From Candidatus Eiseniibacteriota bacterium (GTDB taxonomy: Bacteria > Eisenbacteria > RBG-16-71-46 > CAZAMP01), in NCBI GenBank assembly GCA_965224245.1, contig CBDCYW010000002.1, positions 1 through 12,589 on the forward strand: a DNA stretch of 12,589 nucleotides, given 5' to 3'. Positions 4,249 through 12,165 of this stretch are shown here, piece after piece. The notes below the pieces were generated by a model. It was not told the DNA's origin. It ran no database searches and was given only the letters and a program-made list of their open reading frames with translations. Position numbers and translations under genes: made by a program. The stretch's first letter is position 1; every line of letters begins with the position of its first letter.

Positions 4249-4274
4249 CAAGCAGAACCGTCTGGGGCTGACGG

Positions 4275-4413
4275 CTAGCTCTTGAGCACCGCCCTCAACC
4301 GGTTCTGCAACGACCCCTGCTTGTTCCCGACCACGTCCCTCGGCCCGATGTGCTTCTCGCAGTACTGCTCGGCCGACTTCCCGATCGAGACCTTCAGCTT
4401 CTCCGTGGGGATC
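4275..4413 (-). pseudogene. Distal 3'-end remnant of gene X (last 45 codons)
   Basis: Translates IPTEKLKVSIGKSAEQYCEKHIGPRDVVGNKQGSLQNRLRAVLKS*, homologous to the gene X C-terminus. About 121/139 nt identical to 5411-5549, with 58 bp perfect at 4331-4388. No homologous 5' part. Confidence 0.85.
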
Positions 4414-5302: not shown

Positions 5303-5563
5303 TCTGATGCTCCCGGGTTCTGATCGCGTGATCATAGCCAGCATCGAGCGAGATGCTACAAATAAGCGCGGAGCTTCGGACCAGGGCAGGAGGGAACCTG
5401 GGCAGGGCTGCTAGCTCTTCAGCGCCGCCCGCAGCCGATTCGAGAGGCTGCCCTGCTTGTTCCCGGCCACGTCCCTCGGCCCGATGTGCTTCTCGCAGTA
5501 CTGCTCGGCCGACTTCCCGATCGACACCTTGAGCTTCTCCATCGGGATCACCTCCTCGGTTTC

Positions 5564-5595
5564 CGGCCGTTATGCCGAGCTCGGCATAACGGCCG
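5564..5595. repeat. 32-bp perfect palindrome CGGCCG-TTATGCCGAG-CTCGGCATAA-CGGCCG
   Basis: Read directly. Built from two copies of the adjacent element's terminal decamer between CGGCCG hexamers. Confidence 0.95.
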
Positions 5596-5878
5596 TTATG
5601 CCGAGTGCCGGATTATGCCGAGCCGGCGCCAAGAGCCTGCGGTCACTGTGGCCTGGAGTCGATCCTACTCGGCATAATCGGAGGCACTTCAGTGCTCCAA
5701 AGCGCGGGATAGCCGCAATGAAGCCCAACCTGGCGCACCGTCCTCGTCGTCCGGCTCTGATCCGGGTCGAGGAAGAGGTCCGTTTTATGCCGAGCGTCAA
5801 GCGTTCTGAACGCGTGCAAGTCTGTGCTGCGTCTCACGGCCTGCTATGTGGCTCGGCATAATCCGGCACTCGGCATAA
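5596..5878. mobile_element. 283-bp non-autonomous miniature element with RIT-like terminal inverted repeats
   Basis: Perfect 29-bp inverted repeats TTATGCCGAGTGCCGGATTATGCCGAGCC (5596-5624 and 5850-5878). Inner inverted cores at 5668-5677 and 5785-5794. Flanked by CGGCCG (5590-5595, 5879-5884). It splits a gene X remnant and encodes no recombinase. Confidence 0.8.
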
Positions 5879-6205
5879 CGGCCGGCCCTTGACGGTGACC
5901 CTGAGCCCCTTGGCGACCTTGACGACGTCGAAGCTGACGCGCTCGGAGACGTTGGTGGCGCGGCCGCCAGTGAATTCGCGACCGCGTTGCCAGATAGTAG
6001 CTTTCGAGGCCCGTGCTAGACTCATCGAATGTGCGAAGTCGTCCATCTCCAGCTCTTGCTGGCGACGCTCTCGGCGTGGATCGGACGTTGTCGGGCGGGC
6101 GGTCATCGCCCCCGATCGCATTCCTGCTGAGCCCTACGTCGTCAGTGCCGCTGACGGTTGCCTGTCGCGAGGGACGCCGTGGACTCCTGAGGTACGGGGA
6201 GCGTG

Positions 6206-6829
6206 ATGCGTACAACGATGCTGCTGGTGCTCTCCTGTGCCGCCGTCGTCACGTCGGGCCGTGCCGATGGACCGCCACAGATGATCGCGGCTGCGGACCT
6301 CGGTTTCTGCCAGTCGCCGCCGCACGAGGACCGGGACTGCGATGACATACTCTCAGAACTCAGTGAGTTCGGCGGTCTCATCGACGTCCTCGTGCAAGGT
6401 CTTCCGAGGATCAAAGAAGCGCGGTTCGGCGTGTTCATCGACGGTGACGACACGGAGTTCGGCTGGACCCAGTACGGCGGGTTCACCGTCTCCGTGGTGG
6501 ACACACTCCCGAGCGTCCAGTACGCGATCATTGCAACAGCCATCGACGGCTGCCACAAACTCAGCGATGGGATGCACCATCTGCTGTGCTTCTCGAACGC
6601 CTTTGTTCGCGAGGAAACGACGTTCGCGGTCGTTCCCGACCCCAGGATTGGCCGCGCACAAGTGACCACCTGCGACGACATTGTGATCACGATCCCGGAG
6701 GAGTACCTCGGCATCGTCGGGATCGGTGGCCCACCAGGCTACAACCCCTGCGAAGAGGGCACGGTGGACGTGCCAGATACCCCCCTCCAACGATCATCGT
6801 GGACGACGGTCAAGTCCCTTTACCGGTAG
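6206..6829 (+). CDS. Secreted hypothetical protein with C-terminal SWxxVKSLYR motif
   Basis: GGGGAG RBS precedes GTG 6203/ATG 6206. Signal-peptide-like MRTTMLLVLSCAAVVTSGRA. Ends TPLQRSSWTTVKSLYR. Confidence 0.8.
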   Translation: MRTTMLLVLSCAAVVTSGRADGPPQMIAAADLGFCQSPPHEDRDCDDILSELSEFGGLIDVLVQGLPRIKEARFGVFIDGDDTEFGWTQYGGFTVSVVDTLPSVQYAIIATAIDGCHKLSDGMHHLLCFSNAFVREETTFAVVPDPRIGRAQVTTCDDIVITIPEEYLGIVGIGGPPGYNPCEEGTVDVPDTPLQRSSWTTVKSLYR

Positions 6830-6987: not shown

Positions 6988-7594
6988 CTAGCCTCTCAGC
7001 ACCGCCCGCAACCGGTTCGCCAACGACCCTGACTTGTTCCCGACGACCTCACGCGGCCCCAGGTGCCGATCGGTGTAGTCCAGCGCCGCCTTGTTGATCG
7101 AGACCTTGATGAGCTCGGGGTTCAGCACCTCCTCGGTGTCGGGGCGTCCCTTGATCGCGACCTTCACGCTCTTGCCGCTCTTCTCGACGAGGAACGTCAC
7201 GCGCTCGGCGACGTTGGTGGCGCGGCCGCCGGTGAACTCGCAGGGGACGCCGGCCTTCTTGCAGGCGTCGCGGTAGGGGCCGAGGACGTCGCGGAACTGG
7301 GCCTTGGCGTCGGCGATGAGGGTGTTGGCCTCGCCGCGGAGCGTGGCGGCCTCGGCCTGCATCTCCCGGACGTTCCGTTCGGCGTCGACGACGGCGGTGC
7401 GGAGCGCGTCGAGGTTGGGGGCGGCCGTGTCGCCCGTCGTCGGGGGCGGTGTCGGCGTTTCGGCGGCCGGGGCGGCCGTCGGGGGCCTTCGTCGGCCGAG
7501 CCTTTGCGGTGCGGCCCGATTTGGCGCCGGTGCCGCCCTTGGTCGCCTTCGCCGCCGTCGCCTTCCTCGGAGCCTTCTTCTTCGTCGTCGCCAT
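6988..7594 (-). CDS. 'Gene X': uncharacterised ~201-aa protein (Lys/Ala-rich N-tail, Pro/Ala/Thr linker, coiled coil, conserved C-terminal domain); apparent frameshift near 7481-7485
   Basis: Strong AGGAGG RBS (7600-7605) before ATG 7594, giving MATTKKKAPRKATAAKATK. Removing one base from the G5 run joins this to PTAAPAAETPTPPP...NLDALRTAVVDAERNVREMQAEAATL... and ORF 6988..7362. Very high GC3; two paralogous remnants conserve the protein sequence. Confidence 0.8.
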
Positions 7595-7647
7595 GTCGTC
7601 CTCCTGGGCCGATGTCGCAGGCGCGCCCGATTGCGCGCCAGTGCGAC

Positions 7648-7678
7648 ACACGACCGCTCTGGCCTCTGGTTAAGTCAA
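7648..7678 (-). promoter_or_regulatory. Promoter-like motif TTGACT-N13-GAGCGGTCGTGT facing gene X
   Basis: -35-like TTGACT at 7678-7673; mirrored by the same motif on the + strand at 7713-7743. Confidence 0.55.
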
Positions 7679-7921: not shown

Positions 7922-8512
7922 TTGCCGTACCGCGCCCCCGAGACCATGACCACCGCCGAGCAGCGACGCCTCCTCGACGTCAGCGCCGAGAGCCCGAGGC
8001 CGCGCGATCACGTGATGATCTCGCTCGCGCTCGGCACCGGGCTTCGACTCGGTGAGCTGCTCGCGCTCGACGTCGGTGACGTGAGCCCCGATGGCGTCCA
8101 CGTGCGCACGCGCGTGAAGCTGCGCGTGGAGACGACCAAGGGCGCGCGCAAGGGCGAGGTGTTTCTGCCGGATCGGGTCGTCGAGAAGCTGACGCGGTTC
8201 CTGGCGTGGAAGCGCATGATGGGGGAGTCGCTCGATGGCGACGCGCCGTTGTTTGTGTCGTCATGGGGGCGGCGGTTGTCGCCGAGGCGGACGCAGATGA
8301 TGTTTCAAACGTGGCAGCGGAGAGCAGGCTTCGATCGACTGTACAACTGGCACTGCACCAGGCACTCGGCCATTTCCAACGTCTACCGAGCGTCTCGGGA
8401 CCTCTTTCTCGCCCAGAGGTTCGCTCGCCACGCGTCACCCCTCACCACCATCATCTACACCCATGTATCAGATGAGGAGATGGCGGAGAGGGTACGAGCG
8501 TTACCGTGCTAG
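7922..8512 (+). CDS. Short tyrosine recombinase/integrase (catalytic domain only, 196 aa)
   Basis: RDHVMISLALGTGLRLGEL (Arg), TKG (Lys), HCTRH (HxxR), FARHASPLTTIIYTH (His, Tyr). GGAGGTGA RBS before TTG 7922. Confidence 0.93.
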   Translation: MPYRAPETMTTAEQRRLLDVSAESPRPRDHVMISLALGTGLRLGELLALDVGDVSPDGVHVRTRVKLRVETTKGARKGEVFLPDRVVEKLTRFLAWKRMMGESLDGDAPLFVSSWGRRLSPRRTQMMFQTWQRRAGFDRLYNWHCTRHSAISNVYRASRDLFLAQRFARHASPLTTIIYTHVSDEEMAERVRALPC

Positions 8513-8620
8513 TCTTGTTCGGTCCTTTACGCAAGGGCGGTCGGACACGCACGTGAGCCGGCCCCCACGAAGGTGGGGAGAGAGGCTAACGGGTACCCCT
8601 CTTTCGTGTCTGGTGATGAA

Positions 8621-9792
8621 ATGGCAAACAGCGTGACGGTGGCGAGCCGCGTTGGTCTTCTGGTCGCACTGGCGGCGATCGGCATCGGGTGTGCTTCGAC
8701 CGCGCACGTTCGAGCCCGATCAGGCATGGTAGCGATCTGCGACCCAGTTGTCGCGATCCACCCAGACTCGACGATCGGACGGTGGCGAGATGGCCCATTT
8801 GAGGATTGGAAGAAGATCGGTCCGCGGGGTCTCGCCATGGACGTCGTGGGGGTGGATGAGGTTCTTGCGGATGAACTGCGATCACTCGGATCGCAGGCGA
8901 TCGAGCTGGGAAGGACTGCGGCTGAGACGCAGTGCGACTTCATTGTGGTGCCCGCGATCGTGGCTGCGAAGCTCCGAAACGTGGGTACGGACTACCTTCG
9001 TCGTGCGTCAGTCACGGCGACAGTTCGGTGGATCGGCATCGAGAACCCCTCAGGTCGAGGTCGCTTTGAGATCGAGAACGTCTGCGCGGCGGAGGGTGGG
9101 TCCGCCCGGAAGGCATGGATGGAAGCACTCCGCGTCGGTCTACGATCTATGCTCGCGGATGGGAGGATCGGCGAGCACTGGTTGTCCACCGCGCCGACCG
9201 CGCAGGATGAGGCGGCGATCGAGGCGGCGGATCAACCGGCGGGGGATTGGCTGCTGGAAGCCCGGAGGTCCGTGTTCACGCTCCTCAACTACCGCGACCA
9301 TGGCCACGGAAGTGGCTTTGCGTTTGCCAACGGCGGCTGGGGGTTCAGCAACGTACACGTCTTCGGCAGGTCGTCCGCCCTGTTTGCTACGGTAGATGGA
9401 ACCGATCAACGCGCCGCGCTCGCGTGGCGCCGAAACCGCGAACGGGATGTCGTTCTTTTCAGGTTCTCAGGCGACCCGGTCGCGAGCTTGCCGGTAGCGA
9501 GCACTCCGCCTGAGATCGGCGCCGATGTGTTTGTAATCGGCAGTCCGCTGGAGTGGAACGCGGCCGGTAGTGTCGCGAAGGGCGTCGTCAGCAACCGTGC
9601 GATGCGCGAGGGGCAAGAGTTCATGCAAACGGACGCGCCAGTCAATCCGGAAACAGCGGGGGCCCCGTCCTCAACGAACATGGATCGGTTGTGGGCGTCA
9701 TCGTGGAAAAAGTCGTTGGGCTTGCCGTCGAAGGAATTGGTTACGCAATCCCGATTGAGAACGCGATGGAGTCAGTGGACTGGCCTAACTGA
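8621..9792 (+). CDS. Lipoprotein with C-terminal trypsin-like (S1C/HtrA-type) protease domain; frameshifted at ~9647-9650
   Basis: Signal plus lipobox-like VGLLVALAAIGIGC. Motifs GSGFAF, SNVHV (His) and RDVVLF (Asp). One added base restores [45 protein letters not shown]...WPN* (stop 9790-9792). Confidence 0.85.
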
Positions 9793-9830
9793 CTCACTCT
9801 GTTGAGGCTGCGAGTCCGGAAGAAACGCCG

Positions 9831-10984
9831 TCAGCGCTCACCCCTGATCCGATAGTTCGCCTCCAGCCCATCCCAGAGCCGCTTGAACGCCATTCCGAAC
9901 GCCCGCTTATCCTCCCAGCCCCGGAAATCGACGATGTTGTACGTCCGCTTCATGTGTGCGAGATCGGCTTTGCCGATGCCGAGCCTCGACGGCGGGTTCT
10001 CCCACGTGTTGTCGATGCTAATGGGGCAGAGGACCGGCCTGCCGAGTTCACGCTCCTTCTTCTCCGCGGCCTCGACCTCCAAGCCCACCCACTTCGACTC
10101 CAGGGACTCTCTCGACAGGACGAGGATGGTCACGTCGTTCAGACGGATCGCGCGAGTGAGTGAGGCTCGATCTCCCCGGCGTCCATGTCCTTGATGTCGC
10201 GCCAGTGGCGGAAGCCCTTCGAGTCGAACTCGGTCGAGAGACGGTCAACGAAGCGGGTGTTGGCGTCGCAACGGGCGTAAGAGATGAAGGCGCCGCCGAT
10301 CAGGAGCGGGCCGGCGGAGACGAGCTCGTCGATCTTGTAGATGATGCGATGGATGGCGTCTTCGTTGCCGACGTTCTCGGGGCGTCGGAGGTCATACGTG
10401 AGGATGGCGAGGTCGGAGAGGCCGCAGGTTCGCAGAAACTCCATCGGCAGCGACGGATTGATCTCCAGTGTGCCGACATCAATCGCGCATGGGCCGGAGT
10501 TGACAATACGATCCAGACCGGTTGCTCCTGTCAGGCTGGTTCGGAAGAATCCAGCACCTTGGAGCATGGCGCGGTCGGCAGCCGCCCGGTCTAGTACCGC
10601 GAGTCGGAGGTCACAGAACTCGGCGCGTGCGCCGTTGAGCTGGGCAGCGGTTAGGTTCGCCTGACTGAGATCAGTTCCACGCAGCCTGCTGGTCCGGGTG
10701 CGTGGAGTGGCGAGTCTTCGCGGTGATGAGGGACTGAAAGGTCCCAAATCGACTCCTTGCAGGTTCGCAGCACGGAGGTCGATGAAGCTCAGGTTCGCGC
10801 CACGCAGATCCGCACCACCCAGGTCCGCGCCACGTAGGTCAATCGGGATTCGCCATCGCATGTTCGTGTGGGCAGCCGGAACAACACCCTGGCTCTGTTG
10901 GGAATCGTGCCACTCATTCCACTCCTCCACCCGTTCCGCCTTCAGCGTCTCAATCGCCCACTCCCGCGACCCGATCTCTGCCAT
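9831..10984 (-). CDS. Pentapeptide-repeat + TIR (TIR_2-like) domain protein; frameshifted at ~10160
   Basis: Repeats DLRGADLGGADLRGANLSFIDLRAANLQGVDL. TIR start AFISYAR...FVDRL...GFRHWRDIKDMDAG. One added base gives EIEPxLTRAIRLNDVTILVLSRESLESKWVGLEVEAAEKKE...VLCPISID, about 384 aa in total. Confidence 0.85.
10943..10984 (-). repeat. Copy A of a 42-bp direct repeat (start of the pentapeptide-TIR gene)
   Basis: 38/42 identical to 12005-12046, with 27 bp perfect; encodes MAEIGSREWAIETL. Confidence 0.9.
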
Positions 10985-11922
10985 CACTCGTCCTCGCCCG
11001 GCACGATGAGCCGATTGTTCCTAATGTACAGCTTACCGTTGGGGTTGGGCTGGTACTCGTTGATCCACTCGAGGATGGCCTCGTAGTCCTTGAGTTCGAA
11101 GTCGTAGCGGGATGCCTTGAAGTCCTTGACGCCCTTCGTGAAATGCGACGTTGTCGCGAGCATGGCATTCGCCGCCCGTACTTCACCCTTTACCGCGTAC
11201 AGCGACCGCGCGATGTCGATGCCGACTTTGCGGTCGAGCCGGTACTTTTTGCACTCGATGATCCACGAGGTACGCACGCCAGCCCCGTCCTTTGAGATCG
11301 CGAGGATATCGTACCCGCCGTCTCGGGTTGGCGGCGTGAGCTGCACGGACCAGCCGTAGCCTGCGAGGATCTCAGCGATCAACTCCTCAAACTGGTGGGG
11401 TCGTATCACGTCAAGCTTGTGCGGGTGTTGCTGGAGGTGGGCAATGAGTCGCGCAGCAACCAGGTCGACGACTTCCACCAGTTCACCGGGGGGATCGGCG
11501 GGGCCGAACAGTCGGTGAGGCGGTGCAACGGAGTCTTGAGCCTCCAGAATGCCACCATAGACGTTGTCGTATTCGTCGCTCGCATACCGAGGCAGTGCCG
11601 TCGCTGTCGAGAGTTCGGGCAGGCGCAACGGAGGATCGTAGGTTTCCTTACACGCGACCCGCATGCGAACCCAGTAGTATGTGTTGTATGGTGGAGTCTG
11701 CGCTTCTTCGTCGTCGCCGATCACGATGCGCTCATCCTGCGTCACGGCAGAAACTAGGCCCCACCCAGCCAGAAGAGTGGGATCTGAGGAATCGACAACA
11801 AGCAGCGAGTCACCCGGCGAGATTTGGAGCGGAGCCCAAACCGAGTAGCTAAGCTGGAGCTCTCCTTCGACCTTCCCGTTGGACGTGTCTCGAAGTGCGA
11901 TCCAGCTAGACATGTTGTTCAT
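10984..11922 (-). CDS. Mrr-family (PD-(D/E)xK) restriction endonuclease with N-terminal EVE/PUA-like domain
   Basis: FEELIAEILAGYGWSVQLTPPTRDGGYDILA...IIECKKY...VG....RSLY...AMLATTSHFT is Mrr_cat-like. N-terminus ISPGDSLLVV...LAGWGLVS...YWVRMRV...DPPLRLPEL resembles EVE. Start 11922 or 11913; stop overlaps the TIR ATG (TGATG). Confidence 0.82.
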   Translation of the reverse strand: MNNMSSWIALRDTSNGKVEGELQLSYSVWAPLQISPGDSLLVVDSSDPTLLAGWGLVSAVTQDERIVIGDDEEAQTPPYNTYYWVRMRVACKETYDPPLRLPELSTATALPRYASDEYDNVYGGILEAQDSVAPPHRLFGPADPPGELVEVVDLVAARLIAHLQQHPHKLDVIRPHQFEELIAEILAGYGWSVQLTPPTRDGGYDILAISKDGAGVRTSWIIECKKYRLDRKVGIDIARSLYAVKGEVRAANAMLATTSHFTKGVKDFKASRYDFELKDYEAILEWINEYQPNPNGKLYIRNNRLIVPGEDE

Positions 11923-12004
11923 CCCCGTTTCCAATCGCGACCATTGGGATGTGCCAACAAGTGACGTGTGATCGAAGGAAGCCCAGTGGCACCTGATGAG
12001 TTGC

Positions 12005-12046
12005 CAGCATCTCAATCGCCCACTCCCGCGACCCGACTTCCGCCAT
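12005..12046 (-). repeat. Copy B: orphan 5' start of the pentapeptide-TIR gene
   Basis: MAEVGSREWAIEML with a GAGAGG RBS upstream; runs into unrelated sequence and stops at 11906 (46 aa). Confidence 0.85.
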
Positions 12047-12165
12047 GGCGCCCTCTCATAGAGTTGGTGAATGGCGGGAGTATAGACAGGAGAGTCAGTC
12101 CGGCGAAATCTCAATGCGGCAGTCGTTCGCGGACAAGTGGCCGATGGCAGGGGAGGTAGGGCTCC

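Follow-up and report, generated by a model that had tools for sequence, protein, structure and literature searches.

What is a 283-bp DNA segment with perfectly inverted ends and no recombinase gene of its own, lodged within one member of a repeated gene family, and how did it come to be there? The question is raised by positions 5596-5878 of the window, i.e., the whole stretch of DNA analysed here, which is the entire 12,589-bp contig C3 of a Candidatus Eiseniibacteriota assembly (G000; 6.94 Mb in 27 contigs, 68.6% G+C, 97% complete). The segment is very probably an internally deleted derivative of a recombinase-in-trio (RIT) element. RIT elements, said to have been described by Van Houdt 2009 and Ricker 2013, reportedly comprise ritA-ritB-ritC together with terminal inverted repeats.

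The papers cited below by PMC number were available as excerpts, and the statements taken from them hold for those excerpts. Published RITs carry a trio of genes with short overlaps and are ca. 3.5 kb in size (PMC3414803, PMC2864759, PMC10214605, PMC5737581). Their terminal inverted repeats are 28-29 bp (PMC3414803) or 34 bp long (PMC10214605), and a palindrome adjacent to or overlapping the RIT ends has been noted (PMC3414803, PMC5737581). RITs are widespread, yet, as far as the excerpt of PMC10214605 goes, no laboratory transposition of any RIT has been reported, and the choice of target is untested. The clean insertion site present in the window gives clues to the movement of these little-studied elements.

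Insertion site and interrupted host gene

The host frame, which lies on the minus strand and is interrupted in the window, is a member of a multi-copy gene family. The assembly contains four uninterrupted paralogs, two of them on C23, one on C18, and one on C11. The empty site reads GGTCTC-CGGCCG-GCCCTT in C11 and in the second C23 copy, and has GGGCCG at the place of CGGCCG in the first C23 copy and in C18. The filled site has the order X, palindrome, X, element, X, where X is CGGCCG. Insertion at CGGCCG in the host frame, proposed in the initial annotation, is thereby confirmed by the paralogs. The extent of the insert needed correction: the element 5596-5878 is real, but a 20-bp palindrome to its left and a third CGGCCG had been missed. 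The DNA that the paralogs lack, i.e., the true insert, is therefore 315 bp long (palindrome, 6-mer, element, 6-mer), not 283 plus 6. The features of the region are as follows:

5411-5563, minus strand: 3' part of the host gene (ETEEVIPMEKLK...RAALKS, then stop), 85-88% DNA identity to the C23, C18, and C11 paralogs
5564-5569: CGGCCG copy 1, the target 6-mer, present once in the uninterrupted paralogs (CGGCCG or GGGCCG)
5570-5589: 20-bp palindrome, absent from the paralogs; with the flanking 6-mers a 32-bp palindrome
5590-5595: CGGCCG copy 2, separating palindrome and element; with the adjoining 10-mers a 26-bp core-type site (10-bp arm, 6 bp, 10-bp arm)
5596-5622, plus strand: outer direct 10-bp repeats of the left end (5596-5605 and 5613-5622; 10-N7-10 layout), probably the ritC-side end
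5668-5677, minus strand: inner inverted 10-bp repeat of the left end; the ritC stop TGA abuts the equivalent repeat in 20/20 full RITs
5678-5692, minus strand: probable remnant of the last ritC codons, TGA changed to CGA (profile match, modest score)
5693-5784, minus strand: rest of the centre, probably the ritA-side leader with a few ritA codons at most (weak profile match); no long open frame that matches a family
5785-5794, plus strand: inner inverted 10-bp repeat of the right end (repeat finder, motif count)
5852-5878, minus strand: outer direct 10-bp repeats of the right end (5852-5861 and 5869-5878), probably the ritA-side end
5879-5884: CGGCCG copy 3 (sequence and paralog comparison)
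5885-6121, minus strand: 5' part of the host gene (...EFTGGRATNVSERVSFDVVKVAKGLRVTVKGRP), within ORF 5834-6121 (minus); paralog matches of 93-95%

The host frame enters the element and stops at 5834, 14 codons in. Full-length paralogs have ca. 185 residues or more, including a Lys/Ala-rich N-terminal part that the window copy lacks, so the latter was probably a fragment already before the insertion. As the interrupted copy of a repeated gene was already truncated, the effect on the organism should be small. No protein family was found for the host gene in Pfam or NCBIfam; its products combine a histone-tail-like Lys/Ala-rich N-terminus with a conserved C-terminal domain that gives no family match. 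Copies and fragments of the family are scattered on the small contigs C23, C18, and C11, and three lie in the window, the other two at 6988-7651 (minus) and 4274-4413.

Repeats of the element

The 283-bp element has perfectly inverted ends. The repeat finder delimits two arms, 5590-5624 and 5850-5884, of 35 nt including CGGCCG, 100% complementary and separated by 225 nt. Each arm consists of CGGCCG followed by two direct copies of TTATGCCGAG with 7-bp spacing, and the 29-bp repeat first described, TTATGCCG-N9-TTATGCCG, is the inner portion of these arms. The same program recovered the inner inverted cores at 5668-5677 (minus) and 5785-5794 (plus), 107 nt apart, so the original description of perfect 29-bp repeats with inner cores holds in full. 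Altogether the element keeps all six repeats, i.e., at each end two direct 10-bp copies 7 bp apart and one inner inverted copy. To the left of it lies the perfect 20-bp palindrome 5570-5589, which combines the initial 10 bp of the left end with the terminal 10 bp of the right end; the third CGGCCG lies beyond it at 5564-5569.

Counted with at most one mismatch, the 10-mer TTATGCCGAG occurs eight times in the window, always within 5570-5878, and shuffled sequences gave a mean of 0.42 and a maximum of 3 occurrences (0/200 shuffles reached 8). Outside this region, a single extra copy is found in the 6.94-Mb assembly (C11:28789). No recombinase ORF lies inside 5596-5878, and hence the window element counts as derived from a RIT but not as a RIT proper. 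In a Pfam search (E up to 0.01) the two frames that enter the flanks, 5457-5861 (plus) and 5844-6215 (minus), matched no family; among the frames touching the element, the search covered these two. The promoter/terminator scan returned no promoter-like site and one terminator-like site (5763-5782).

Full-length RIT elements with the same ends

Elements of 3356 and 3373 bp with an identical end layout occur in G012 and G032, respectively, which belong to the same class as G000, each element carrying three co-directional tandem Phage_integrase genes (404, 309, and 331 aa). In the G012 RIT (L017, 2479-5834) the genes of the trio overlap by 4 bp. The ends of the window element are 84-87% identical to those of the G012 and G032 elements over 54-58 nt.

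A public scan of one genome per prokaryotic species with the pattern TTATGCCG-N4-CCGGA-TTATGCCG gave at least 142 stretches from many phyla; the matches listed include proteobacteria, acidobacteria, actinobacteria, planctomycetes, verrucomicrobia, firmicutes-type MAGs, and one archaeal MAG. Among these matches 76 loci were fetched with long flanks (L030-L105), yielding 27 distinct end pairs. All the full-length pairs among the matches listed, 3.07-3.66 kb in size, enclose RitA-RitB-RitC in this order (22/22 by tblastn), and none of them encloses a transposase other than the tyrosine recombinases. Twenty of 20 aligned full RITs have the three-repeat layout at each end, with the ritC stop TGA abutting the inner repeat. 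The initial annotation had proposed that tandem-core ends mark RITs, moved by tyrosine recombinases rather than by a DDE transposase, and had suggested a search for a three-recombinase element with the same ends. Such elements do exist in G012, G032, and the public genomes, though not in the assembly of the window, and their tyrosine-recombinase trio argues against ends of a DDE type. The marker value of the ends is narrower than supposed: the RIT of plasmid pHG1 has a different end motif despite 62.7% identity between its RitC and the L017 one, which means that TTATGCCG ends mark a large subfamily and not all RITs. There is no RIT-specific model in NCBIfam, the three L017 proteins matching the XerC and XerD models below the cut-offs.

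Several further observations concern these full-length elements. L017 sits within a homologue of the 196-aa recombinase gene described below, at its 'RH' codons, and its flanks (2400-2452 and 5861-5920) both read as inverted copies of the same 3' part of the gene. Likewise, in L071 (1179-4525) and L104 (4501-7874), as in L017, one flank repeats the other over a long stretch in inverted orientation (45 nt shown), which suggests RIT-mediated inversions between paralogous target sites. Related RITs occupy the same position of the same gene families in the pairs L037/L083, L071/L074, and L088/L104, which points to a target preference. To judge by gene names read from the flanks, the recurrent target families are a transposase-like one with ...WQRC.VH... 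and another with ...WQ.H(T/S)VRG. An inverted repeat CTCCTC...GAGGAG is present upstream of ritA in many RITs (L017, L019, L035, L037, L071, L074, and others) and could mask the ribosome-binding site in a predicted hairpin. Finally, a contig labelled Candidatus Aenigmatarchaeota (L103, 4475-4525) carries a RIT-type end with its palindrome at its terminus, which could be an archaeal RIT or a binning error.

Probable remnants of the rit genes

Profiles made from the two sides of 20 full RITs were compared with the window element. The best match of the ritC-side profile (5692-5663, minus; 12.9 bits, E 1.7e-5, a modest score) aligns with the last ritC codons and the stop, at which the window has CGA for TGA. 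The ritA-side profile matched 5797-5747 (minus) with an E value of 8.9e-4, no better than its matches to other repeat copies. Probably ca. 15 nt of the ritC tail are retained, and ritA, ritB, and ritC are otherwise gone. If this reading of the ritC tail holds, the element would run from the ritA side to the ritC side on the minus strand. The deletion would then have taken out essentially all of ritABC, ca. 3 kb, yet spared every repeat. GGAGG (5679-5683) and GTG (5692-5694), earlier noted as an orphan GGAGG...GTG, are indeed present; in the light of the profile match they more probably represent the opposite strand of the ritC tail than a start signal.

Search for copies and helpers in the genome of the window

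Other copies of the element in its own genome, which the initial annotation had suggested looking for, were not found: BLAST against the assembly returned self-matches only. The assembly also contains no other RIT-type end (up to 4 mismatches), no other such palindrome (up to 2 mismatches), and, although 97% complete, no RIT trio detectable with RitA, RitB, and RitC; these searches met generic recombinases only, at separate loci and with 27-38% identity (two best places per query). With no RIT, no other end, and no second copy in the assembly, the window copy is an orphan, and, given that there is no RIT to move it, an immobile one at present.

Searched against 206 genomes of the class, the element gave end matches but none to its centre; three GC-rich matches of 22-46 nt (G159, G201, and G069; E 1e-4 to 8e-4) were taken as chance. 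So were four matches of 20-21 nt, devoid of the repeat motif, to an exact 20-mer from the centre in metagenome contigs.

The sequencing runs were checked through Logan assembled contigs of three runs from one sample. The depth of the element equals that of the unique flanks, both being low (2-2.8). A joint skipping the 315 bp, as well as the loose ends, carries the paralog-type GGTCTC and not GGTTTC of the locus; these 'empty' joints come from the paralogs and do not represent excision. One contig of run X3 joins 5623 to 5852, which would put the outer repeat pairs back to back in a palindrome of ca. 55 bp; the shorter side of this joint is 26 nt, which is weak, and the contig may derive from another organism in the sample.

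As for the surroundings of the element, ORF 7922-8512 (plus), 2 kb away, codes for a 196-aa tyrosine recombinase comprising the catalytic domain only (Phage_integrase), similar short ones being encoded on C26 and C7. The region 8573-12114 resembles a defence island, its genes encoding, among others, a trypsin-like peptidase, a pentapeptide-repeat protein that weakly matches TIR, and a restriction endonuclease of the Mrr type.

Miniatures in other genomes

Short end pairs recur elsewhere. Five of the 27 pairs among the matches listed are only 329-392 bp apart, and none of the five encloses a Rit gene. Other short elements were met in G032 (L018), at L131, and in G065, which has a second copy. 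In nine of nine short elements (that of the window, L018, L030, L054, L056, L082, L097, and the two of G065), which measure from 283 to about 430 bp, the two inner repeats are present, if not unchanged then as recognisable variants.

The miniatures elsewhere behave as mobile units. In G065 two 341-bp miniatures are 91% alike over their full length and have unrelated flanks. G061 has two 329-bp copies (C5:3620584-3620912 and C8:43309-43637; L170 and L175) with 1 mismatch in 341, and their flanks differ by 4 mismatches in 142 and 4 in 141 (8 of 283); the two are oriented in opposite directions, and the palindrome is on the same side in both cases. Both G061 copies are inserted at the YADD codons of the reverse-transcriptase gene of a group II intron, in two copies of the intron. 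The G063 miniature is made up of 174 bp of one end and 177 bp of the other end of a full RIT from the same genome (92.5% and 84.3% identity, respectively), and in G064 a miniature and a ritA-bearing contig have identical terminal 25-mers. A full RIT is also present in four of the seven miniature-bearing genomes (G032, G061, G063, and G064), G062 and G065 having been searched by the end pattern only.

Junctions and proposed mechanism of movement

A palindrome lies exactly 6 bp outside the end at 58 of 147 distinct ends, and 93 of the 147 are preceded by CA. At the 58 ends the outer 6-mer agrees with the reverse complement of the inner one at 6/6 positions in 21 cases, at 5/6 in 12, at 4/6 in 19, and at fewer in 6, the value expected by chance being 1.5. 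Among 29 end pairs the element-adjacent 6-mers are inverted copies of each other at 6/6 in 13, and direct copies only in L056 and in the window, whose 6-mer is itself palindromic. In the 17 pairs with one palindrome, the outer 6-mer directly repeats the far flank at 6/6 positions in 8 and at 5/6 in 5, so that a direct repeat of 6 bp encloses the unit 'palindrome, 6-mer, element'. Palindromes occur on the ritA side and on the ritC side without preference. In L083 and L088 the 'old' and the 'target' 6-mers lie side by side, and in L083 they differ by synonymous changes in codons of the host gene. Not all loci conform: the L056 and L030 miniatures have plain direct 6-bp repeats without a palindrome, a misfit to the model given below, and L131 and L105, with poorly related flanks, fit the junction rule poorly.

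These arrangements can be accommodated in the following scheme, drawn from the sequences. The 10-bp repeats would be the putative recombinase binding sites, and strand exchange would take place in the 6-bp overlap adjoining the outermost repeat, as in ordinary tyrosine-recombinase reactions. The junction of a circular form would read right end, X, palindrome, X-inverted, left end, and would thereby comprise two mirror-image core sites (10-bp arm, 6-bp overlap, 10-bp arm). A crossover at either core with a matching target 6-mer would produce X, palindrome, X-inverted, element, X; exchange at either core would leave the position of the palindrome relative to the target fixed and the orientation of the element free, as in the G061 pair. 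An inner 6-mer unlike the target copy would be the overlap carried from the previous site, as may be the case in L083 and L088, and an overlap carried from site to site would also pick the target. The inverted flanks of L017, L071, and L104 would represent secondary inversions. In Tn554 and Tn916-type elements the overlap is likewise carried over from the previous site.

Hairpin or telomere-resolvase-like models might also be considered for the combination of a palindrome with inverted 6-mers, and hairpin intermediates have been proposed (PMC5737581). They were set aside in favour of the circle with two cores, which would explain the G061 pair as well.

Origin of the window element

Positions 5570-5878 with one CGGCCG make up a non-autonomous RIT miniature together with the 20-bp end-to-end palindrome that most RITs of the subfamily carry. 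It is somewhat more likely than not that it was a miniature on arrival and that RIT recombinases acting in trans had moved it, be it in an earlier host of this DNA or before a helper was lost. We lean this way because miniatures elsewhere are found at unrelated sites or beside a full RIT. Nothing shows that the window copy itself moved as a miniature, as it is single, has no helper, and its centre was found nowhere else; of the initial proposal of a deleted RIT derivative moved in trans, the RIT ends are supported, movement in trans being conjectural for this copy. By the standard set there, that a single copy would suggest deletion in situ rather than mobility, a second history has to be weighed, in which a ca. 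3.3-kb RIT inserted at CGGCCG and later lost ritABC, the 283-bp form never having moved. It has a lesser but still considerable chance of being right. The single copy, the missing helper, and the lack of a homologous miniature anywhere searched all agree with it, RIT arrays with missing or truncated genes have been reported (PMC3414803), and the case of G063 shows that a resident RIT can give rise to a miniature by simple internal deletion. It requires, however, two events at one site, and the retention of the inner repeats, or of variants of them, in 9/9 short elements of 283 to about 430 bp looks like selection for a mobile unit and not like random decay. The occurrence of miniatures at unrelated sites elsewhere also argues against it, though none of these points bears directly on the window copy.

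Two further readings were weighed. As a segment of ca. 300 bp bounded by perfect inverted repeats and lying 2 kb from a Phage_integrase ORF, the element could be an invertible switch flipped by the short tyrosine recombinase 7922-8512 in a fim-type control of genes, and the G061 miniature does occur in both orientations at paralogous sites. We nevertheless hold such a switch to be very improbable: the insertion breaks a coding frame and is absent from the four paralogs, its ends are RIT ends, no promoter-like site was found, and the short family of the neighbouring recombinase occurs on other contigs without such repeats. The assembled read contigs show a single orientation, with the proviso that such contigs drop rare variants. 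The small size, terminal inverted repeats, flanking 6-bp repeats, and lack of coding capacity would suit an ordinary MITE of a DDE-transposase insertion-sequence family. This origin can be practically dismissed, as the full-length elements with these ends (22/22 among the matches listed) encode only three tyrosine recombinases, and the multiple sub-terminal repeats with 6-bp spacing fit recombinase core sites. Arrival of a ready-made RIT miniature is the reading that we adopt.

Significance

The RIT type, its terminal repeats, and the palindromes at its ends are already in print, and gene-less miniatures are the part for which no description was found: the literature searched, i.e., without Ricker 2013 and Van Houdt 2009, yielded no paper on miniature or non-autonomous RITs. 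('RIT' in the RepRanger paper stands for terminators and is irrelevant to recombinase-in-trio elements.) We put forward tentatively, as a proposal more open to doubt than the derivation of the window element, that gene-less miniatures of ca. 0.3 kb are a regular by-product of RITs across phyla (5/27 end pairs among the matches listed), MITE-like and moved by the tyrosine-recombinase trio through a circle junction with mirror-image cores, in which the carried 6-bp overlap picks the target. If this is true, the 315-bp unit is close to the minimal cis substrate of a transposition system that has never been reconstituted. A natural 283-bp derivative that has all the repeats, a perfect junction, and 'before' sites in its paralogs defines the requirements in cis and provides a testable model of the junction. 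Such miniatures also break genes, and they are invisible to annotation keyed on recombinase genes.

Comparison with known systems

The window element resembles RITs in its terminal inverted repeat of 29 to 35 bp, as against 28-34 bp in the excerpts of the literature available, in having the same ends as 22 full trios among the matches listed, and in the palindrome at its end; RITs, too, tend to sit in genes of other mobile elements. It differs from them in the lack of recombinase genes and in size, 283 bp compared with about 3.3-3.5 kb.

With MITEs it shares its 283-bp size, non-coding character, and 35-nt repeats, and CGGCCG is present on both sides of the palindrome plus element where the paralogs have one copy. 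Unlike typical MITEs, it occurs in one copy, with no autonomous partner in its genome. Multiple copies are found in G065, and an autonomous partner in G032, G061, G063, and G064. MITEs and the Tn3-derived inverted-repeat miniature elements (TIMEs; PMC4133298) are similarly gene-less, keep the ends of the parent, and depend on its enzymes in trans. The enzymes there are DDE transposases, whereas here the parent encodes only tyrosine recombinases, with three repeats per end and a 6-bp overlap.

The likeness to Tn554 and Tn916-type elements lies in the 6 bp beside the RIT element, which seem to travel from the former site to the next (L083 and L088). Those elements have no such terminal inverted repeats, possess other recombinase sets, and carry cargo genes. 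Cis-mobilizable elements (CIMEs), which derive from integrative conjugative elements, and integron gene cassettes are also non-autonomous, with sites for a tyrosine recombinase encoded elsewhere; they use a fixed attachment site or attC/attI pairs and are devoid of long terminal inverted repeats with tandem binding sites.
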